From a virus (Duplodnaviria; Heunggongvirae; Uroviricota; Caudoviricetes): a stretch of DNA of 21,416 nt. The notes under the pieces are model-generated. The model ran no database searches, was not told where the DNA came from, and saw only the letters and a program-made list of their open reading frames with translations. Positions 7,641 to 18,646 of the stretch are shown piece by piece. Position 1 is the stretch's first letter. Every line of letters begins with the position of its first letter. The stretch covers positions 1-21,416 of the IMG/VR virus record IMGVR_UViG_2579778894_000023; one strand, given 5' to 3'. A program made the position numbers and the translations under genes.

Positions 7641-8048
7641 AATTATCTCCATTTTTACAAATGAATTTTGTCGATGCGGTGCCTGGTGCCTCCAGGTGAC
7701 GTTAACCAGTTAACAATTAACGCCGGATAATCCACCCATAACACTGATGCTTTTAACTGTGCCGCGTGCGCTTAGCCGCATTCACCGCATCACAAAATTC
7801 ACTTTAAAAAGGGGCGGCAGGGCAGCCACGGAGTAGAACTGATGCCGCCAAAGACTACACATAGCAATGTCGTTATTTACAACCGGAGGCGCACTCCCAC
7901 CATTTAAATTTAACAGACAAGACCGACTCTTTATGGATACCGGAAATGCGCCTTCGTGTTGTGCCCGGTTTTATTTCACCACCTCCGGGCTTTGGTGGCC
8001 TCGGCTATACCCCTACAGCAAGAATATTGAATTAATCCAATAAATGGT

Positions 8049-12070: not shown

Positions 12071-12569
12071 CTATCAGGCGCTGCGTGAGGCGGCAGAAGC
12101 AATAAAAATAGCAGCCACACCACAAAAATTTCTGGCATTTCGTATGAAAGCCACACCTCAGGTTGTGCTGGAACTGCTGGATGAACTGGAAATTAAAAGC
12201 AAACGAATTAACGAGTTAATCAAGGGTGGTGAAAACGCCAAATACGTGACTGAAATTTTCCGACTTGAGAAAAAACGCATGACGCTGGCGGCGGAGAATG
12301 AGCTGGCTCGTAAAGCAGTTCAGGCATTCTGCGATGTTGTTGGCGACAACACTGAGGTTATCTGTGAGGAGGTTGGGAGAGATGGCGTTCTGGTTATTTT
12401 GGAGGCCATGAAGGCAACAGGAAATATGCCAGCCACCGACGCTTTCCTGGCTGAAGTACGGGCGCAGGGGGTTGAGATGATGCGCGAACACCCATCAATC
12501 AAACTTTGCTCTTTGACGCACATATGTGACGAGTTAGCCGCTCAGCTTCGCAAAGGAGGCAACCAGTGA
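12057..12569 (+). CDS. ead/Ea22-like family protein (paralog 1)
   Basis: GTG start at 12057 ([17 protein letters not shown]...) with SD AGGAGG 6 nt upstream; N-terminus shared with the paralogs at 12566 and 13210; coiled-coil-like middle region. Confidence 0.6.
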
Positions 12570-12766
12570 GCAAGATTGACTACCAGGAATTGGCTGCTGC
12601 TAACGCTTTTCTGGCGGATGTTCGGGCAGGGGCGTTTAACGACCTTTGCGCGGCGTTTGTCAGGCACGCAAAAATTGCAGGACTGGATGATGGCGACACT
12701 GTGACGCTTAAGGAAGCGACTGATGCGCTGCTGCACTGTGCGGAACAGCTTCGCGCTCCAGAATAA
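12566..12766 (+). CDS. ead/Ea22-like family small protein (paralog 2)
   Basis: GTG start ([20 protein letters not shown]...) with SD AAGGAGG 6 nt upstream; overlaps the previous stop (GTGA). Confidence 0.55.
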   Translation: MSKIDYQELAAANAFLADVRAGAFNDLCAAFVRHAKIAGLDDGDTVTLKEATDALLHCAEQLRAPE

Positions 12767-12832
12767 TTAAATTTTTCACTGTAAATAAAATTTAATCCTT
12801 AACCGGAGGGGTTTCTGCACCCTCAGAACATC

Positions 12833-12864
12833 AGGAGGCCGCCCGAAAGGGCGGTAGTGAAATG
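12833..12864 (+). promoter_or_regulatory. SD-hairpin-AUG translation initiation structure
   Basis: AGGAGG (12833-38) directly followed by the hairpin ccgccc-gaaa-gggcgg (12839-54, GNRA loop), then 7 nt to ATG 12862. Folding would reduce the 23-nt linear SD-AUG distance to ~7 nt. Confidence 0.4.
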
Positions 12865-13044
12865 AGAAAGTTCAAAATAATTATTGAAACGGGAATAGCC
12901 GGTGGAGATTTCGAGGATGAATTCGAAGTGGATGATGATGCGACACCAGATGAAATACAGGATGAAGCTAAAGATATTTTCTTTAACCACTGCAATTACT
13001 CATACCACGAAATAAAAGACGAAGAGGAAGAACAAAATGGCTGA
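12862..13044 (+). CDS. Small acidic hypothetical protein
   Basis: 60 aa, very acidic (DFEDEFEVDDDATPDEIQDE...EEEEQ); start preceded by the SD-hairpin arrangement. Confidence 0.5.
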   Translation: MRKFKIIIETGIAGGDFEDEFEVDDDATPDEIQDEAKDIFFNHCNYSYHEIKDEEEEQNG

Positions 13045-13213
13045 TTTTGGTTCAACTAAATATAACGCCAGTTTTGAAGAATGGCATGAACTGTTAATGG
13101 ATTATGCAGAGTTACGCGGTGGAAGTGGCGCTGATGCTGAAGCATGGCGTGATGATTATGAAGCAGGGAAAACTCCGGTCGAAGCATATTGTGATGAGTG
13201 GGGCGATGAATGA
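13037..13213 (+). CDS. Small hypothetical protein (58 aa)
   Basis: Hand-translated ORF MADFGSTKYNASFEEWHELLMDYAELRGGSGADAEAWRDDYEAGKTPVEAYCDEWGDE; SD GAGGAAG upstream; overlaps the previous stop by 8 nt and the next start (ATGA). Below the ORF-track cutoff. Confidence 0.4.
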   Translation: MADFGSTKYNASFEEWHELLMDYAELRGGSGADAEAWRDDYEAGKTPVEAYCDEWGDE

Positions 13214-13569
13214 GCGAGATTAATTATCAGGAAGGGCATGAAACGGCAGAGCAGGCAAAACCAGTTGCATGGCGATATCGCTACGTGAAAAAAGGCGTTA
13301 CGGACTTTCAGGGGAAGCAGTGGGCTGGTGACTGGAAATATGTCCCGACAAAAGAAGATTGCAACGACAGGCCGAGCTATGAGATTCAGGCCTTATTCAC
13401 TGCCCCGCCAGTTCCGGTGACATCAGAAGGACTGGTTAAAGCCGTGCGCTTTTATGAACAGGTAAAGTGTGAGAATCCGCCAGCTGAAACCGGAGCATGG
13501 AAAGACGCTGTTGACTGGGTACTCAAGGAGGCCTGCCAGGCTGTAAACATTGGCAACAAAGGAGAGTGA
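13210..13569 (+). CDS. ead/Ea22-like family protein (paralog 3)
   Basis: 119 aa; N-terminus MSEINYQEGHETAEQAK shares the SEINYQ motif and its DNA (gagcgagattaattatcag) with the paralog at 12057. Confidence 0.6.
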   Translation: MSEINYQEGHETAEQAKPVAWRYRYVKKGVTDFQGKQWAGDWKYVPTKEDCNDRPSYEIQALFTAPPVPVTSEGLVKAVRFYEQVKCENPPAETGAWKDAVDWVLKEACQAVNIGNKGE

Positions 13570-13570
13570 T

Positions 13571-13789
13571 GTGCCTACATTATTCAGAAAAGAATATCCG
13601 CGAAAAAGTAGAGCGACAGAATTTTTGTTTCTCATTCTGTTTATCGTGTTGATGACACCGATATCCCCGCTAATTTTTGTCTGGGCAATCGGGAAAATAA
13701 TTGAGCCAGTTATTGAATTGTATAACGACGTGGTACGGGCGTCGTTCAATACACTGCACAATAAAATTAATCCATATAAGGAAAACTGA
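13571..13789 (+). CDS. Small membrane protein (one hydrophobic helix)
   Basis: GTG 13571 with SD AAGGAG 6 nt upstream (alternative ATG at 13550); hydrophobic segment FLFLILFIVLMTPISPLIFVWAIG. Confidence 0.45.
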   Translation: MPTLFRKEYPRKSRATEFLFLILFIVLMTPISPLIFVWAIGKIIEPVIELYNDVVRASFNTLHNKINPYKEN

Positions 13790-13790
13790 A

Positions 13791-14156
13791 ATGGCACTGA
13801 CGAAAAAACAACGTGCAGAGCTGCGCATGAAGTTCGGCGGTCGCTGTGCTTATTGCGGCTGCGAACTTGGCGAAAAGTGGCATGCAGACCATGTAAAACC
13901 GGTCATTCGTTTTGCTGGAAATATGCTTCACCAGGAACGTGACGATATATCCAACATGGTTCCGGCATGCCACCCATGCAATCTGCACAAGCATTGCAGC
14001 AGCCTGGAAGATTACCGGCGAATTATCAGTGATGGTCGTCGTGAATTCCTTGCATCCGGGAAAGGCAAAGCGCTGGTTCGCATGGGATTGGTTGAAATGA
14101 AACCTGACCCGGTTGTGTTCTGGTTTGAAAAATATCAAGAAGGGGCTACGGCATGA
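13791..14156 (+). CDS. HNH endonuclease
   Basis: 121 aa from ATG 13791 (MALTKKQRAEL...); classic HNH zinc-finger spacing CAYCGC...HADHVKP...N...ACHPCNLHK; SD AAGGAAAA. Confidence 0.85.
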   Translation: MALTKKQRAELRMKFGGRCAYCGCELGEKWHADHVKPVIRFAGNMLHQERDDISNMVPACHPCNLHKHCSSLEDYRRIISDGRREFLASGKGKALVRMGLVEMKPDPVVFWFEKYQEGATA

Positions 14157-14845
14157 CCACTTTTACCAATAGCAAACAAACAGACGAATACGTTTCAAAT
14201 GCAACGTTGATTCGGCTCATTCTGTGGGCTGACCAGCACAATAGCCATTATGTTGTAGCGGCTCTGCGCGAGCTACAGGAGCGCCGCAAGGCTGATAGTG
14301 TGCCTGTAGAAATCAACGACGACATGGCTTACGCATTTCACCATGCGCTTTCTGACTCATCGCTTGGCTCTGATGAAATCGAAGAAATTAAAACAGGGTT
14401 GCGTGCTGCCTTTGCCAATGTCACCGTCCAGCCGGTGCTGATAGTGCCGGATGAAATGGATTTGCTTACCTGCCATCTCGACGGTGTAACTGAAACATAT
14501 GCTGATGGCTGGAACGCCTGCCGAGTCGCCATGCTTCAGGCCGGAAACTTTCGGGAAAATAAAGATTCGTCAACCAGCAATTTTCGGGAAATCTCGGAAA
14601 CGTCAACCAGCTCTCCGGGAGTTCCGGCTGGCTGGATAAGCTGTAGTGATGCAGTTCCTGCTGAATATTGCGATGTGATTCTGTGCGATGATCTCGGGAA
14701 TGTATTCCCCGGTTCCTGGGACAAGGTTTTTTGTCCCACTCGTGGCGGGAATAAGATGGCTTTTGTGGACAAAGACGGCGTCGAAGTAGAGAGCTCAACT
14801 CACTGGATGCCACTACCGGAACCACCGCAGGAGGTGAATCAATGA
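14153..14845 (+). CDS. DUF551 domain-containing phage protein
   Basis: 230 aa; C-terminal segment WISCSDAVPAEYCDVILCDDLGNVFPGSWDK...THWMPLPEPP is the recalled DUF551 signature; ATGA overlap with the HNH stop; internal tandem repeat NFRENKDSSTS/NFREISETSTS. Confidence 0.75.
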   Translation: MTTFTNSKQTDEYVSNATLIRLILWADQHNSHYVVAALRELQERRKADSVPVEINDDMAYAFHHALSDSSLGSDEIEEIKTGLRAAFANVTVQPVLIVPDEMDLLTCHLDGVTETYADGWNACRVAMLQAGNFRENKDSSTSNFREISETSTSSPGVPAGWISCSDAVPAEYCDVILCDDLGNVFPGSWDKVFCPTRGGNKMAFVDKDGVEVESSTHWMPLPEPPQEVNQ

Positions 14846-14925
14846 CCTGGCCTGAAGCGTTCACAACGGTAGGAATTGCAATGGCGGTGGCGCTGGTGGT
14901 GTATTCGATTTGCCGCTGGGGATAA
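14842..14925 (+). CDS. Candidate 27-aa membrane microprotein
   Basis: MTWPEAFTTVGIAMAVALVVYSICRWG; strong SD AGGAGGTG 6 nt upstream; ATGA overlap with the previous stop; followed 6 nt later by a terminator. Below the ORF-track cutoff. Confidence 0.4.
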   Translation: MTWPEAFTTVGIAMAVALVVYSICRWG

Positions 14926-14930
14926 CAAAC

Positions 14931-14961
14931 AAAAACCCCGGATTGATGGTCCGGGGTTTTT
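14931..14961. terminator. Bidirectional rho-independent terminator ending the moron operon
   Basis: aaaaa-ccccgga-ttgatgg-tccgggg-ttttt: 7-bp GC stem with an A-run on one side and a T-run on the other. Confidence 0.7.
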
Positions 14962-15184
14962 GAAGGAAACAAAACAGAAACAACAATTGCCGTTATCTGT
15001 TGTTACCATGGCAAGTAAACGTATCTCAGGCGAGCGCATTGCGCCGTTCTGACGCAGATAAATTAGCCTGGATAGATGGTGCTGGCAATAAAAAATAGCG
15101 TTTTCTTATCGGTGTCGGTAAGATTGCTGCGGGTGCTTGAGGCTGTCTGCCTCGGGCATGCCACTGTAAGGCAGACAGAGAAAA

Positions 15185-15285
15185 GCCCCAGTTAACATTA
15201 CGCGTCCTGCAAGACGCTTAACATTAATCTGAGGCCATATCTATGCGACACATAGAGATTAGCCTCTTACGGACCGAAAGGTCAA
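15185..15285 (-). ncRNA. Candidate sok-like antisense RNA and its promoter (approximate)
   Basis: Minus strand reads TTGACC (15285-15280), 18-bp spacer, TAATCT (15261-15256); predicted start ~15249 would make an RNA complementary to the mok-like start region. 3' end not defined. Confidence 0.25.
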
Positions 15286-15302
15286 GGAGAAGCAGGCTAT
15301 GA
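15243..15302 (+). CDS. Candidate mok-like leader ORF (19 codons) coupled to hok
   Basis: ATG 15243 lies inside the hairpin ctatg-cgaca-catag; ORF MRHIEISLLRTERSRRSRL ends in TGA overlapping the hok ATG (cTATGAag). Confidence 0.3.
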   Translation: MRHIEISLLRTERSRRSRL

Positions 15303-15454
15303 AGCAGCAAAAGGCGATGTTAATCGCCCTGATCGTCATCTGTTTAACCGTCATGGTGACGGCACTGGTAACGAGGAAAGACCTCTGCGAGGTACGAATC
15401 CGAACCGGCCAGACGGAGTTCGCTGTCTTCACAGCTTACGAATCTGAGGAGTAA
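15299..15454 (+). CDS. hok: Hok/Gef-family type I toxin (small membrane peptide)
   Basis: 51-aa ORF translated by hand: MKQQKAMLIALIVICLTVMVTALVTRKDLCEVRIRTGQTEFAVFTAYESEE, with the Hok signature LTRKxLCE(V/I)R...EVAAF-like...AYES. Below the ORF-track cutoff. Confidence 0.85.
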   Translation: MKQQKAMLIALIVICLTVMVTALVTRKDLCEVRIRTGQTEFAVFTAYESEE

Positions 15455-15511
15455 GAGACCAGGCGGGGGAGAAATCCCTCGCCACCTCTCATGTGTCAGG
15501 CATCCTCAACG

Positions 15512-15536
15512 CACCCGCACTAAACCCGCTTCGGCG
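15512..15536 (+). terminator. Rho-independent terminator of the hok mRNA
   Basis: acccgc-uucg-gcgggu stem with UUCG tetraloop followed by a T-run. Confidence 0.75.
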
Positions 15537-15729
15537 GGTTTTTTGTTGCGCGCTGAATGCGCAGGGTGAAAAATAACCATATATTTGATTATATACACAA
15601 CAAAAAATAAAAGTCATTGCACCTGCACATTAAATAATCAAATATACGACGTGAAATAAATATTTTTCAGATTAATATTTTTGTCTCTATGTGAATATAA
15701 CCGTTTGTACTTATAAACCTGGAGGCATC

Positions 15730-15942
15730 GTGGAAAAAATAAAGAAACTATTTAGTAGCAAATATGCAGTCATACGTCGTGATGACCTGTCAATTATAGT
15801 CGAAATGGATTACTTCCCTGAAACCAAAAAATCAATGATGTATCGTAATGGTCGAAAGGCAATTTTTTTACCGATGAGGGTAAGTGACATTATGGGAAAT
15901 GATAAACTGCTGGATGAATTGCGAGTCAGAGCATCCTGTTAG
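15730..15942 (+). CDS. Small hypothetical protein in an AT-rich moron
   Basis: GTG 15730 with SD GGAGG (alternative ATG 15691 without SD); 70 aa VEKIKKLFSSKYAVIRRDDLSIIVEMDYFPETKK...; upstream ~170 bp very AT-rich, compositionally unlike its neighbours. Confidence 0.45.
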   Translation: MEKIKKLFSSKYAVIRRDDLSIIVEMDYFPETKKSMMYRNGRKAIFLPMRVSDIMGNDKLLDELRVRASC

Positions 15943-16013
15943 TATTGGCATTAATTCTGGTATACTACATAACGGGCTGAACACCCATTCTACTGCGCCA
16001 GCGGAGAACTACG

Positions 16014-16613
16014 ATGGCGCATATACAACTGGTCAAACAAACCTCTTCAGGATTACTTCTCCCGGCGACGCCGGAGAGTTGCGATTTTTTGCATCAAATA
16101 AAAATAGGTGAGTGGATACACGCAGACTTTAAGCGTGTGCGTAACTACGCATTCCACAAGCGTTTTTTCAAACTCCTGCAACTGGGATTCGATTACTGGA
16201 CTCCGGTCGGTGGGGCGATCACGCCTCGCGAACGAAAACTGGTATCAGGCTTCGTTGATTACCTGTGCGAATCAGTAGGTCGGGAACATACACCAGCTCT
16301 GAGCGAAGCCGCAGAGCAATATCTGAATACAGTTGCAACACGCAGAACCCGGGATACGGCATTGCTAAAGTCGTTTGACGCTTTCCGCGAGTGGGTAACC
16401 ATTCAGGCCGGATTTTACACCGAGCATATTTATCCGGACGGTAGCCACGGGCGTCGGGCGAAATCCATCGCTTTTGCGAATATGGACGAAACCGAGTTTC
16501 AGCAGGTTTATAAAGCCGTACTGAATGTGCTGTGGAACTGGATCCTGTTCCGTAAATTCTCCTCTCCGGAGGAAGTCGAAAATGTGGCCGCGCAGCTGCT
16601 GGAGTTTGCGTAA
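16014..16613 (+). CDS. Nin-region phage protein (possibly DUF1367 family)
   Basis: 199 aa; SD GGAGAA; sits directly upstream of the YbcO-like gene and Q, as in nin regions. Family name is from memory and uncertain. Confidence 0.65.
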   Translation: MAHIQLVKQTSSGLLLPATPESCDFLHQIKIGEWIHADFKRVRNYAFHKRFFKLLQLGFDYWTPVGGAITPRERKLVSGFVDYLCESVGREHTPALSEAAEQYLNTVATRRTRDTALLKSFDAFREWVTIQAGFYTEHIYPDGSHGRRAKSIAFANMDETEFQQVYKAVLNVLWNWILFRKFSSPEEVENVAAQLLEFA

Positions 16614-16903
16614 TGGTGGATTTACGTAAAGCGGCAAAAGGTCAGATGTGTACAGTCAGAATTCCTGGCTACTGCAATCACAATCCCGAAACGTCCGTGC
16701 TGGCGCATTACAGGCTGGCGGGGACGTGTGGAACAGCGACAAAACCACACGATATGCAGGCAGCGATTGCCTGTAGCTCATGCCACGATTTAATCGACGG
16801 GCGGGTAAAAAACAGCGATTACACCAAAGAAGAATTACGCCTGATGCATGCAGAAGGTGTTTTTCGCACACAAGAAATCTGGAGAAAGGAAGGTTATTTA
16901 TGA
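16613..16903 (+). CDS. YbcO-like (DUF1364) Cys-rich putative nuclease
   Basis: 96 aa; DLRKAAKGQMCTVRIPGYCNHNPETSVLAHYRLAGTCG...IACSSCHDLID matches the recalled DLP12 YbcO pattern; ATGA-type overlaps on both sides. Confidence 0.75.
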   Translation: MVDLRKAAKGQMCTVRIPGYCNHNPETSVLAHYRLAGTCGTATKPHDMQAAIACSSCHDLIDGRVKNSDYTKEELRLMHAEGVFRTQEIWRKEGYL

Positions 16904-17454
16904 TTTACCCAACAAATACAGGCAAAAGCGGGGAACACCTTCGTCTCACCACGCTGGAAAGTGTCTGGATTCAGGGAAAACTGCGCATGTGGGGGCGCTG
17001 GTCGTATATTGGCGGCGGTAAGACGGGAAATATGTTTAACCAGTTGCTGGCATCCAAAAAATTGACGAAAACAGCCGTCAATGAAGCCCTGCGCAGGATG
17101 AAAAAAGCGGGAATAGAGAAACCTGAGCTGGAAGCGTTTTTGCGGGATATGATCAACGGCAAGCAAAAAAGCTGGCTGGTGCATTGTACTGATGCAGAGG
17201 CGTTATGCATTGATCGGGTGATTAGTGAAGTGCTGGCAGAACACCCAGGATTGATTTGTATCCTCCGGCAACGATATGAAGGGCGGGGGATGAGTAAGCG
17301 CAAAATGGCTGAATTGCTAAATGATGCACACCCTGAGTGGTGTTTTCGGACGTGCTGCAGTCGGGTAGATGTATGGCTAAATCTTGCTGAATATATGCTC
17401 TATCTGCCGATGCGTGATGCATTCTCTTCCGGGTATTTAAAAACTGTCTGTTGA
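16900..17454 (+). CDS. Late-gene antiterminator Q (Q-like family)
   Basis: 184 aa from ATG 16900 with SD AAGGAAGG; followed by a strong promoter and short-leader terminator (PR'/tR' layout); weak resemblance to recalled Q-family motifs (LES.W...WGRW, C.DAEALCI). Confidence 0.65.
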   Translation: MIYPTNTGKSGEHLRLTTLESVWIQGKLRMWGRWSYIGGGKTGNMFNQLLASKKLTKTAVNEALRRMKKAGIEKPELEAFLRDMINGKQKSWLVHCTDAEALCIDRVISEVLAEHPGLICILRQRYEGRGMSKRKMAELLNDAHPEWCFRTCCSRVDVWLNLAEYMLYLPMRDAFSSGYLKTVC

Positions 17455-17479
17455 CTCAATCTGTTATCCGGGGCTATAT
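17450..17479 (+). promoter_or_regulatory. Late promoter PR'-like
   Basis: TTGACT (17450-55), 18-bp spacer, TATATT (17474-79), overlapping the end of the Q gene. Confidence 0.55.
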
Positions 17480-17540
17480 TCCTCACGCGCCAGCAAAATC
17501 TGGCGTCGGGATTAGGAACCCCGGATAGAGACCGCGACAG

Positions 17541-17566
17541 ACACACGCCGCGAGCGTGTTTTTTAT
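17541..17566 (+). terminator. tR'-like terminator of the short late leader RNA
   Basis: acacgc-cgcga-gcgtgt followed by tttttt, ~80 nt after the predicted PR' start. Confidence 0.65.
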
Positions 17567-17727
17567 TGTCGTATGCACGCGCACATCTGAATTATGGTGG
17601 GGCGTATGGGGGAGCTGAAAAGCTCGCCGGTTGGTTTCCCGGTAGTTCCTAACCCTGTACGTCTCACCACCCGATGATTAGGAACCTGACGGTGGTGATG
17701 GTTTAGAAACCACCAGAGGGCGTCATT

Positions 17728-18309
17728 ATGACAACTCAAATTTCTGTTGAAACTCTCTCCCCGATCACCCATAACCAGATTCCTGTTATTACCACCGAAC
17801 TTTTGGCGCAGTTGTACGGTGCTGAAGTTAAGAACATTCAAAATAACTACGCCAGAAATGCTGAGCGCTTTATTGAAGGAAAGCATTTTTTCAAAGTGGC
17901 TGGCGATGCCCTGATAAATTTGCGGGTAGCTTTAAACTACTCACAAAATTTGCAACCATCTTTAAGAGGGTTACAAATTTCCCCGAAAGCCCGCTCCCTC
18001 ATCCTCTGGACAGAACGCGGAGCAGCCCGTCATGCCAAAATGCTCGAAACCGATCAGGCGTGGGATGTGTTCGAAAAGCTGGAAGACTGCTATTTCAGAC
18101 AAAAGGATCCGTCAGCGCCAGTTTCATGCCAGAAAAGTTACGACACGCGAGTTCTCTGTTATCAGCGAGGCGGTGTCACTGTTTCCACAATTCAGTTGCG
18201 GGATGATGATATTGTTATTTCCCTTGAGTCATGGCTGGAACTGGCGAGAGCCAATGGTTGGTTTGTTGTTCGCAGAGATAAACTGGTGGAAAGGCTGATG
18301 CAGCTTTAA
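17728..18309 (+). CDS. ORF6N-domain DNA-binding protein (moron between Q and lysis genes)
   Basis: 193 aa; ITTELLAQLYGAEVKNIQNNYARNAERFIEGKHFFKV matches the recalled ORF6N pattern (LAELYGV..+.LNQAVKRN..RFPEDFMFQL). Confidence 0.75.
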   Translation: MTTQISVETLSPITHNQIPVITTELLAQLYGAEVKNIQNNYARNAERFIEGKHFFKVAGDALINLRVALNYSQNLQPSLRGLQISPKARSLILWTERGAARHAKMLETDQAWDVFEKLEDCYFRQKDPSAPVSCQKSYDTRVLCYQRGGVTVSTIQLRDDDIVISLESWLELARANGWFVVRRDKLVERLMQL

Positions 18310-18404
18310 AAAACTTCTTGCATTTTTGCACATAAACTGCTTCAATTCCGGTACGCTTCGCAAAGCTGTATCGCGAGGCGAATCAAGCGCATGAACTTTA
18401 CCAG

Positions 18405-18433
18405 AACCCGCCATTGAGCGGGTTTTGTTGTTT
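18405..18433 (+). terminator. Rho-independent terminator after the ORF6N gene
   Basis: aacccgc-cattga-gcgggtt followed by ttgttgttt. Confidence 0.6.
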
Positions 18434-18646
18434 CTGACGGATAGAAAAATGAAATAGCTAAATAAAAAGAATGCATTGGATGCCATATATTGGCAACGTG
18501 ACGACAGCGTTAATCTGGTCGGGCTCCCATGGCGACGTAGTGAGGGAGAGGAAGCGTAAAGCATCACTGAGTTACGGTTGGCACCCGGTTTAACGCGTAA
18601 GTGGCCTGATAAAGAGATAGTGCGCCGCGGCACTCACAGCGGCAAC

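Follow-up and report, generated by a model that had tools for sequence, protein, structure and literature searches.

Positions 15119-15547 of the window, by which we mean the whole 21,416-nucleotide stretch of viral DNA that was analyzed, very probably hold an intact hok/sok-family type I toxin-antitoxin (TA) cassette of the hokD/hokW lineage, with the predicted switch and antisense control of that family. An earlier note had proposed a hok/sok-type type I toxin module here, and Pfam, Rfam, homology to phage 933W, predicted folds and covariation all agree with that identification. The cassette is an ordinary, apparently complete copy, in a lambda-like E. coli prophage, of a long-known and very common element.

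The Hok toxin gene and the extent of the cassette

The 51-aa Hok-family ORF that the earlier note had claimed is present at 15299-15454 on the plus strand. Its product matches the Pfam family HOK_GEF (PF01848) over model positions 1-42 of 42, with an E value of 1.1e-22 and a score of 79.8 bits against a cut-off of 22 bits. At E <= 1e-5 we collected 626 Hok homologues, and PF01848 was found in 626/626. The closest toxin is that of hokD (relF) in the K-12 Qin prophage, with 48/51 residues identical; HokW is identical at 46/51, leaving 5 residue differences. Gene calls for the identical NCBI contig, JICG01000016.1 (GCA_000690985.1), include the 51-aa gene, and the closest E. coli relatives carry the RefSeq/PGAP name hokD. 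Within the gene, the Tyr47 codon TAC and the G that follows it (TACG, 15437-15440, plus strand) form a candidate context for TadA A-to-I editing, and editing from Tyr to Cys at the corresponding site has been reported for hokC/D/E (PMC12214031).

At the RNA level, the Rfam sok/hok-leader model (RF01794) matched in full, with model positions 1-157 aligned to 15131-15301 on the plus strand (104.7 bits, E 4e-23; gathering threshold 59 bits), and the match takes in the tac/ucb stem and the Sok-target hairpins. Identity to loci annotated as mok/hok/sok in phages 933W, VT2-Sakai and Rac is 91-94% from 15123 to ~15545, and across E. coli prophage and phage loci as a whole nucleotide identity ranges from 91 to 97%. 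Homology to phage and plasmid loci extends from 15123 to ~15558. Thus, the range of 14966-15549 first given for the module does contain it, but starts about 150 nt 5' of the conserved cassette. The upstream region 14966-15122 contained no supported ORF and no RNA family, and its entire length is conserved in just 26 of 5,426 E. coli genomes; it lies outside the cassette, except possibly for a -35 element.

Several sub-threshold matches from the Rfam scan of 14900-15700 were rejected. These were isrK on the hok 3'UTR (30.6 bits), as well as ncr1015, STnc30, His/Thr leaders and others on the hairpin at 14925-15085. All fell below their gathering scores, and a generic hairpin followed by a U-tract is the simplest explanation for them.

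The predicted mRNA switch, the mok leader and the putative Sok RNA

The transcription start was placed at about 15131 from homology with the R1 and hokC promoters. The putative -10 element, TAAGAT (15119-15124, plus strand), aligns with the R1 -10 box TATGAT, which has been validated by loss-of-function mutations (PMC9841398), and hokC loci have TATAAT at an equal distance from GGGTGC. The -35 is poorly defined, and the sequence 5' of ~15123 is unconserved among relatives. From the Rfam start and homology, the full-length hok mRNA would run from 15131 to 15547 (plus strand, ~417 nt), ending in the T-tract of an intrinsic terminator with an 8-bp stem (15522-15547, plus strand), which both a terminator scan and the fold indicate. 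The minimum free energy (MFE) of this RNA is -176.1 kcal/mol, with z = -7.6 relative to shuffles.

The earlier note had also described almost perfect complementarity between a 5' and a 3' element of the hok mRNA, and folds, shuffles and covariation uphold this fold-back, with corrections to its position and length. The 5' element gctgcgggtgcttgagg occurs once, at 15126-15142 and not at 15124-15140, and the 3' element cctcaacgcacccgcac also occurs once, at 15504-15520 and not at 15493-15509. Fifteen positions pair, with one bulged C at 15510, but about 5 of the 17 nt probably precede the transcription start. We therefore dropped the full 17-nt pairing and kept 12 nt: the additional 'gc(t)gc' lies 5' of the start placed by homology, and neither the hokC nor the Photorhabdus lineage conserves it. 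The transcribed pairing joins tac, GGGUGCUUGAGG, at the mRNA 5' end (15131-15142, plus strand; seen in the predicted folds and conserved in 38 loci) to fbi, CCUCAA(C)GCACCC (15504-15516, plus strand), with 12 bp in the MFE fold and a duplex energy of -21.1 kcal/mol. When the 3'UTR was shuffled 2000 times with its dinucleotides preserved, only 7 shuffles bound the 12-mer equally well or better, and among all 12-mers of the mRNA, the 5'-terminal one binds the 3'UTR most strongly.

Conservation was assessed in the 38 loci, which come from Escherichia, Kluyvera, Citrobacter, Pantoea and Photorhabdus, together with one R1-type plasmid. The tac/fbi helix is 91% paired across these loci, compared to 32-55% for slid controls. 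At alignment columns 4/428 the pair types are UA (24), CG (12) and UG (1), a compensatory change between U-A and C-G. The native tac/fbi duplex has an energy of -17 to -25 kcal/mol in every locus. A column-wise count gave 10-13 'unpaired' rows in the second half of the helix, which we do not take as real unpairing because the Photorhabdus and Pantoea rows, which have no bulged C, pair one column over; in register-free duplex energies these rows pair perfectly.

The predicted folds reproduce the published R1 hok mRNA folding model (PMC9841398): tac/fbi in the full-length mRNA, tac/ucb together with mok SD/dcb once the mRNA is truncated, and, at an intermediate length, a metastable 5' hairpin. 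The last of these, a concept that comes from R1 (PMC9841398), appears in the fold of 15131-15500 as an 11-bp helix between 15133-15143 and the tac partner at 15149-15159 (plus strand). In the 3'-shortened fold, tac pairs instead with ucb, an anti-Shine-Dalgarno (SD) box with the sequence AAGCCCC (15183-15189, plus strand), through a helix that belongs to the Rfam consensus structure and is 99% paired in the 38 loci. The mok SD, GAGG (15231-15234, plus strand), lies 8 nt 5' of the mok ATG and aligns with the R1 GAGG. In the full-length fold it is sequestered by ucb, with GCC at 15185-15187 paired to GGC at 15233-15235; in the truncated fold it pairs with dcb, GCCUC (15262-15266, plus strand), to give the predicted Sok-target hairpin, and this helix is 97% paired in the 38 loci. 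The full-length fold also predicts 15 bp between the mok start region (15243-15257) and a 3' segment at 15486-15503 (plus strand). Toward the 3' end, a GC-rich stem-loop (15462-15483, plus strand) forms a 9-bp helix in both folds and is 95.5% paired, with three covarying pairs in the 38 loci. It is the expected protective 3' end of the processed mRNA, and its R1 counterpart is required for the stability of the truncated mRNA (PMC9841398). Apart from tac/fbi, the helices are 93-99% paired in the 38 loci.

The 19-codon leader ORF overlapping the hok start, as described in the earlier note, is likewise there. This mok frame (MRHIEISLLRTERSRRSRL; 15243-15302, plus strand) starts at an ATG at 15243 that aligns with the annotated mokW ATG, has its own SD, runs through the hok SD and ends with a TGA at 15300-15302 that overlaps the hok ATG (ATGA). 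The overlap falls within a hairpin, as had been claimed: the hok SD, GGAG (15286-15289, plus strand), which lies in a local hairpin at 15265-15290, and the hok AUG are both paired in the predicted folds. AAGGAG at the hok SD is invariant across the 38 loci. A mutational scan of R1 showed that mok translation is needed up to the hok SD and not past the hok start (PMC9841398), a requirement that the 19-codon mok, judged from its sequence, would satisfy.

Offsets of 56, 57 and 58 nt between mok and hok were all found among relatives, with 56 nt here. We had considered whether mok is always out of frame with hok and rejected this, as most loci have the in-frame 57-nt offset and R1 has 58. That all three frames occur among close relatives agrees with the published view that translation reaching the hok SD matters, and not the Mok product. 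A 19-codon mok whose stop lies on the hok ATG is a common natural variant. At least 1,230 E. coli records match this stretch almost identically, and the 19-codon mok recurs in hokC-type loci of E. ruysiae (L022) and E. whittamii (L023) and in a hokD-type locus of a metagenome bin (L029). Whereas the 57-nt variants encode Mok and Hok in one frame, as a 70-aa fusion, the 56-nt variant would make no such protein. We consider it unlikely, though worth naming, that the 56-nt offset is a distinct regulatory variant in which Hok would be made by termination-reinitiation rather than by read-through.

The predicted Sok RNA (15181-15249, minus strand, ends placed by inference) would be ~69 nt long, with a single-stranded 5' tail, a long hairpin and a UUUU tract. 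Its complementarity to the mRNA takes in the mok SD, the mok AUG and ucb. The calculated folding energy is -30.5 kcal/mol (z = -5.2), and the misc_RNA annotated as sokW in 933W maps to ~15181-15251 on the same strand. The minus-strand promoter that had been reported to face the leader (TTGACC/TAATCT) lies at 15285-15256 as given, with the -35 TTGACC at 15285-15280, an 18-bp spacer and the -10 TAATCT at 15261-15256. Its key positions, A(-11) and T(-7) of the -10 and TTG of the -35, are invariant in the 38 homologous loci, although conservation of the TTG is ambiguous evidence because it overlaps the hok SD. The homologous -10 position was the one mutated in a promoter-less hokW-sokW construct (PMC8621323). 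A generic sigma-70 scan reported neither the hok nor the Sok promoter, giving only two unrelated minus-strand sites at 15588-15670; in the case of Sok this is because the -10 matches the consensus at just 3/6 positions. Both promoters are weak consensus matches, and their assignment thus rests on homology and not on consensus strength.

Known relatives and the prophage setting

The same order of elements is found in hokW-mokW-sokW of the Stx2 phages 933W and Sp5 (VT2-Sakai) of E. coli O157:H7, with 91.3% nucleotide identity from the -10 region to fbi. Some differences are evident. In 933W, mokW (whose ATG aligns with 15243 of the window) is a 70-codon in-frame extension of hokW with an offset of 57 nt, whereas the window has 19 codons and 56 nt. 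The Sok promoter of 933W reads TTGCCT/17 bp/TAACCT compared to TTGACC/18 bp/TAATCT here, and the two loci diverge just 3' of fbi, so that their terminators differ. 933W also has a small hydrophobic ORF (corresponding to 14842-14925 of the window) just upstream of hokW, and a hokW cloning primer (PMC8621323) matches 14838-14860; in the window, unlike 933W, about 200 nt that include a terminator hairpin separate the upstream ORF from the cassette. Experiments established hokW-sokW as a type I TA system, in which HokW kills or arrests cells through damage to the inner membrane and is neutralized by Sok, an antisense antitoxin that depends in part on RNase III and Hfq (PMC8621323).

K-12 hokD shares with the window the hok SD, coding sequence, 3' stem-loop, fbi and terminator, and in related phages a rem-like small gene comes next. 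However, K-12 hokD is truncated: homology begins at the hok SD, and relBE sequence replaces the tac, ucb, mok and sok regions. It is regarded as having no canonical TA components (PMC12214031). Because the window has the full leader, it represents the intact form of the hokD lineage.

R1 hok/sok (parB) has the same tac, metastable hairpin, ucb, mok SD, dcb, hok SD, 3' stem-loop and fbi, and its Sok, too, is antisense to the region where mok translation begins. Nucleotide similarity outside these core motifs is limited, the toxins are ~40-45% identical, and R1 mok has 70 codons in the +1 frame, with an offset of 58. The tac/fbi pairs differ in a compensatory manner, with GGCGCUU/AAGCGCC in R1 and GGGUGCUU.../...GCACCC in the window. 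R1 hok/sok is plasmid-borne and acts in post-segregational killing.

The Escherichia chromosomal locus hokC/mokC/sokC (gef) shares the leader motifs and the tac/fbi logic of the window copy, and some hokC-type loci (those of E. ruysiae and E. whittamii above) share the 56-nt offset and 19-codon mok. Nevertheless, hokC is a different lineage: its toxin is ~80% identical, its leader is ~19 nt shorter, and its tac/fbi helix contains G-U pairs. Its site is chromosomal and non-prophage, and in K-12-like strains hokC is interrupted by an IS element.

Our cassette belongs to a lambdoid/Rac-like prophage of an Escherichia chromosome and occupies the early-right (nin-like) part of it. It is flanked by DUF551 upstream and by DUF1367, YbcO and DUF1133 (a Q-like antiterminator) downstream, and the surrounding prophage genes (Ead/Ea22 ... 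DUF551, hok, DUF1367, YbcO, DUF1133) are all on the plus strand. Between the cassette and the upstream genes there is a terminator-like hairpin at 14930-14962. The prophage also bears the antitoxin RNA of a second type I TA system, RalA, and is therefore dense in RNA regulators.

Proposed mechanism and role of the prophage copy

Transcript ends, processing, Sok expression, toxicity and role are taken here by analogy with R1 hok/sok and Sp5 hokW-sokW. A weak constitutive promoter, with its -10 at 15119-15124, would give a stable ~417-nt mRNA, the 5' end of which would be held in the metastable hairpin during transcription. In the finished full-length mRNA, pairing of tac (15131-15142) with fbi (15504-15516) would go along with sequestration of the mok SD and AUG, and because of this sequestration the mRNA would be open neither to translation nor to Sok binding. 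Slow shortening from the 3' end as far as the stem-loop at 15462-15483 would remove fbi; the structural prerequisites for such processing, a protective stem-loop and an fbi located downstream of it, are present. After the loss of fbi, tac would pair with ucb (15183-15189) and the mok SD with dcb, producing the target hairpin and a translatable mRNA. The unstable ~69-nt Sok, made from the minus-strand promoter at 15285-15256, would pair with the mok translation-initiation region and block mok translation, and with it the coupled translation of hok, and the duplex would be cleaved, partly by RNase III. As Sok declines, ribosomes would translate the 19-codon mok through the hok-SD hairpin and stop on the hok AUG (ATGA), the 51-aa Hok peptide would then be synthesized, and the inner membrane would be depolarized.

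At prophage induction, loss of Sok and production of Hok likely help lysis and phage release, a role that we propose with lower confidence, by extension from a single study on another phage, whose locus is 91% identical. In that study, hokW-sokW was activated by mitomycin C induction and raised phage release roughly two-fold (PMC8621323). It is possible, at somewhat below an even chance, that the cassette is functional but serves mainly to stabilize the prophage, through killing after its excision or loss, or to effect abortive infection or exclusion. R1 hok/sok both stabilizes plasmids and lowers T4 plating (PMC8621323), in prophages hok genes are enriched about four-fold and their function is not settled (bioRxiv 10.1101/2025.08.07.668861), and the 933W GenBank record labels the locus 'prophage maintenance'. 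However, the sole direct experiment on a prophage copy, that with hokW-sokW, found help with lysis and release and not defence (PMC8621323), and hok loci show no enrichment near defence systems (bioRxiv 10.1101/2025.08.07.668861). No sequence feature separates the lysis, stabilization and exclusion roles.

The private features of the cassette are limited to two substitutions in Hok, I19M and V41F. Among 116 cluster representatives, position 19 is Ile in 112 and position 41 is Val in 114, and the exact 51-aa protein is recorded on a single contig. Taken together, these observations could mean that the toxin is attenuated. One may go further and view the cassette as a decaying, harmless relic with intact RNA elements, in which the toxin is attenuated or the short mok couples poorly, a status commonly ascribed to many chromosomal hok loci; consistent with this, the K-12 genes hokA, C, D and E are considered to have been inactivated (PMC12214031), and E. 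coli chromosomal hok loci tested for post-segregational killing were reported not to show it (bioRxiv 10.1101/2025.08.07.668861). We judge such decay quite improbable. The cassette has no frameshift, stop or IS element, and all of its regulatory elements are kept and conserved. Of 45 diverse Hok homologues assayed, 42 were toxic (bioRxiv 10.1101/2025.08.07.668861), which indicates that Hok tolerates much sequence variation. As for the short mok, its recurrence in E. coli records and in the three loci named above suggests that it is tolerated or functional, and the R1 data require mok translation only up to the hok SD (PMC9841398).

Finally, that the 5'/3' complementarity and the antisense promoter arose by chance, with neither an RNA switch nor antisense control and the Hok ORF expressed by read-through of the early-right operon like truncated K-12 hokD downstream of relBE, is exceedingly improbable, for although both promoters fail the generic consensus scan, K-12 hokD has no leader and shares only the SD, coding sequence and 3'UTR, and the early genes around the cassette share its strand, the leader scores far above the Rfam covariance-model threshold, very few shuffles match tac/fbi, which covaries across genera, the key promoter positions are invariant, and the terminator-like hairpin separates the cassette from the upstream genes.

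The value of identifying this apparently complete hok/sok copy lies mainly in annotation, with a small toxin gene and its predicted antisense RNA recovered from a kind of locus that gene callers often overlook or label in differing ways. Public records call this locus type hokD, Hok/Gef, MokW, 'host killer protein' or 'RelF inactive antibacterial toxin protein', or give it no name. If Hok were made by termination-reinitiation at the 56-nt offset, the amount of Hok or the time of its appearance at prophage induction would vary from one mok variant to another. For the family, the prophage copy provides the intact form of a lineage whose truncated remnant is K-12 hokD.

The hok/sok cassette and its toxin

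The toxin ORF encodes 51 aa at 15299-15454 (+), covers the whole Pfam HOK_GEF model (E 1.1e-22), and shares 48 of its 51 residues with HokD of the K-12 Qin prophage and 46 with HokW of the Stx phage 933W/Sp5 locus. An earlier note had read a hok/sok module into 14966-15549. This interpretation is supported and the observation behind it is confirmed, with coordinates corrected; the cassette does lie inside that range, but 14966-15122 falls outside the conserved mobile unit. Phage and plasmid homology has a sharp onset at 15123 and ends at ~15521-15558, indicating that the mobile unit is the transcript plus its -10 box. Of 5,426 complete E. coli genomes, 4,720 carry related sequence, and the nearest relatives (96.6% over 14940-15560) have it annotated as hokD; in the same set, 14966-15122 is common at full length to only 26 genomes. 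We conclude that this is an already known element, a standard hok/sok cassette belonging to the hokD/hokW prophage lineage. Loci of the hokD type were also seen on contigs labelled Veillonella parvula MAG, Acinetobacter idrijaensis and Xanthomonas pisi (L006, L025 and L032 of the relatives set; 93-95% protein identity) and in an 'Actinobacillus phage' record (H21, a nucleotide match; 94% nucleotide identity). These odd hosts probably reflect contamination or mislabelling, not real cross-phylum transfer.

Window positions 12299-18454 match NCBI contig JICG01000016.1 (GCA_000690985.1) at 100%, and the 51-aa gene is annotated there, the only contig on which this exact protein is recorded. Two substitutions are private to it: V41F (codon 41, 15419-15421), where 114 of 116 cluster representatives have Val, and I19M (codon 19, 15353-15355), where 112 of 116 have Ile. 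Because F41 and M19 are unusual residues, the toxicity of this allele, judged from its sequence, is not certain. When diverse Hok homologues were assayed, 42 of 45 were toxic (bioRxiv 10.1101/2025.08.07.668861). The Tyr47 codon and the following G (TACG, 15437-15440, +) conserve the motif at which TadA A-to-I editing, with a Tyr-to-Cys change, has been reported in hokB, C, D and E (PMC12214031).

In phage 933W (AF125520), mokW, hokW and the sokW antisense RNA are annotated in the stretch homologous to the cassette, with the mokW ATG aligning to 15243 and sokW to ~15181-15251 (-). What K-12 hokD (relF) has in common with the window is limited to the hok SD, the coding sequence and a 3'UTR that includes the fold-back inhibition element (fbi), its leader being replaced by relBE sequence, which agrees with the view that K-12 hokD is without canonical TA components (PMC12214031). 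Since the leader is present here, the window copy is the intact form of the hokD/hokW lineage.

Predicted mRNA states and the Sok antisense RNA

When the whole window was scanned with Rfam, the full RF01794 ('sok antitoxin') model matched at 15131-15301 (+), scoring 104.7 bits where the gathering score is 59. The match is on the sense strand and its 3' limit is the hok ATG, so in practice the model describes the hok mRNA leader; the window fits all its features, namely the tac/ucb stem, the long 5' hairpin, the Sok-complementary hairpin and the mok SD/dcb hairpin. The mRNA 5' end was set at 15131 by aligning the -10 box TAAGAT (15119-15124) with TATGAT of plasmid R1, which has been validated by mutation (PMC9841398). 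A G lies 7 nt after the box in both R1 and the window, and hokC loci have TATAAT at an equal distance.

The 17-nt complementary strings noted earlier each occur once, at positions other than those given: gctgcgggtgcttgagg at 15126-15142 instead of 15124-15140, and cctcaacgcacccgcac at 15504-15520 instead of 15493-15509. The 12-nt 5' element tac is predicted to pair with fbi. The additional 'gctgc' of the 17-mer falls before the inferred start and shows no conserved complementarity beyond the window's lineage.

The full-length mRNA (15131-15547) folds at -176.1 kcal/mol (z = -7.6). In this predicted fold, the partner of tac (15131-15142) is fbi (15504-15516, C15510 bulged); ucb contributes GCC 15185-15187 to a helix with GGC 15233-15235, which overlaps the mok SD; the mok start region (15243-15257) is paired to 15486-15503; and a local hairpin at 15265-15290 holds the hok SD (all +). 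When the RNA is shortened to 15492, so that a GC-rich stem-loop (15462-15483, +) stands at its 3' end, the predicted partner of tac becomes ucb (15183-15189, +) and that of the mok SD becomes dcb (15262-15266, +), leaving the mok AUG in an apical hairpin. The fold of RNA ending at 15500 has an 11-bp 5' hairpin, 15133-15143 with 15149-15159 (+), corresponding to the metastable structure. The three predicted states match the published R1 model (PMC9841398). The cassette ends in a terminator, an 8-bp stem at 15522-15541 (+) followed by a T-tract. The hok 3'UTR with its GC stem-loop and terminator (15463-15544, +) also matched isrK below threshold (30.6 bits, gathering score 50, E 1e-4). This probably reflects generic shape, though there is a true isrK 2 kb further downstream.

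The duplex of tac with the 3'UTR has an energy of -21.1 kcal/mol; when the 3'UTR was dinucleotide-shuffled 2000 times, only 7 shuffles did as well, and tac is the strongest 3'UTR binder among all 12-mers of the mRNA. Using the Hok protein, we collected and aligned 38 distinct loci, which come from Escherichia species, Shigella, Kluyvera, Citrobacter, Pantoea, Photorhabdus, an R1-type plasmid, and phages 933W and Rac. Across them, the tac/fbi helix is 91% paired, compared to 32-55% with the 3' partner slid by 1-3 columns; native duplex energies are -17 to -25 kcal/mol in every locus, and position 4 is U-A in 24, C-G in 12, U-G in one and mismatched in one. Pairing reaches 93-99% in the tac/ucb, 5' hairpin, SDmok/dcb and 3' stem-loop helices, with covariation at several pairs.

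On the minus strand, the predicted Sok RNA (15249 to ~15181) consists of a 5' tail, a long hairpin and UUUU (-30.5 kcal/mol, z = -5.2). Its complementarity extends over ucb, the mok SD and the mok AUG, with the single-stranded tail of ~13 nt complementary to the mok AUG region. The proposed promoter hexamers are present, TTGACC at 15285-15280 and TAATCT at 15261-15256, spaced by 18 bp. A generic consensus scan did not report this promoter because the -10 matches at only 3 of 6 positions. Nevertheless, its critical -10 positions A-11 and T-7, as well as the -35 TTG, are invariant in 38 of 38 loci, although conservation of the TTG is ambiguous evidence since it overlaps the hok SD. The homologous -10 position was the one mutated in a promoter-less hokW-sokW construct (PMC8621323).

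The mok leader

The 19-codon leader ORF is as described, running from ATG 15243 to TGA 15300-15302, with its stop overlapping the hok ATG as ATGA. Among relatives, the offset between the mok and hok ATGs is 56, 57 or 58 nt. At 57 nt, the commonest offset, mok and hok share a frame and form a Mok-Hok fusion of ~70 aa (mokW and mokC are examples); an offset of 58 nt, found in R1 (PMC9841398), puts mok in the +1 frame with ~68-70 codons; and 56 nt, as in the window, always gives 19 codons and an AUGA end on the hok start. Loci of the hokC type in E. ruysiae and E. whittamii share the 56-nt form, as does a hokD-type locus of a metagenome bin (L029), and the 116-nt stretch 15205-15320 is near-identical (≥99%) in at least 1,230 E. 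coli records. Thus, the 19-codon mok is a common natural variant and no novelty. Because a mutational scan of R1 found that mok translation is needed up to the hok SD and not past the hok start (PMC9841398), it should still couple with hok.

Prophage context and role

The window is a Rac/lambdoid prophage adjoining the host ryeA/sdsR locus. Rfam matches to the core-genome sRNAs SraC/RyeA (-) and SdsR/RyeB (+) at 463-607 mark the host chromosome flank and suggest integration nearby. A full-length match at 2173-2351 (+; 223.8 bits, threshold 170) to RalA, the antitoxin sRNA of the Rac-prophage RalR/RalA type I TA, indicates a second RNA-controlled toxin system in the same prophage. DicF (7812-7863, -) and isrK, c4-a1b1 and C4 antisense RNA (17474-17674, +) also exceed their gathering scores, the isrK/C4 matches lying directly upstream of an ORF6N antirepressor-like gene (~17728-18309).

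The cassette is flanked by a DUF551 gene on one side and by DUF1367, YbcO and a Q-like gene on the other, all on the plus strand. Ahead of it, a 13-bp GC-rich hairpin with A-runs and T-runs on its flanks (14930-14962) resembles a bidirectional terminator separating the early genes upstream from the hok cassette; 933W lacks a stretch of ~200 nt containing it. A 27-aa hydrophobic ORF, MTWPEAFTTVGIAMAVALVVYSICRWG (14842-14925, +), begins with an ATG overlapping the DUF551 gene stop (ATGA). Because its 3' coding sequence recurs immediately upstream of hokW in 933W, its product may be a conserved small membrane peptide.

Work on the Sp5 copy (Takada et al. 2021; PMC8621323) showed that HokW is toxic and that sokW from its own promoter neutralises it, in part via RNase III and Hfq. 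Upon mitomycin C induction, sokW is lost and HokW is made in a RecA-dependent manner, and deletion of the hokW-sokW locus halves phage release (PMC8621323). Several primers of that study are near-exact in the window, including YO-432 at 14838-14860, upstream of the cassette. More broadly, prophages are ~four-fold enriched in hok genes (bioRxiv 10.1101/2025.08.07.668861). Prophage stabilisation or phage exclusion is an alternative role that the sequence would also allow; by analogy with hokW-sokW, the cassette would most likely aid lysis and release on induction.
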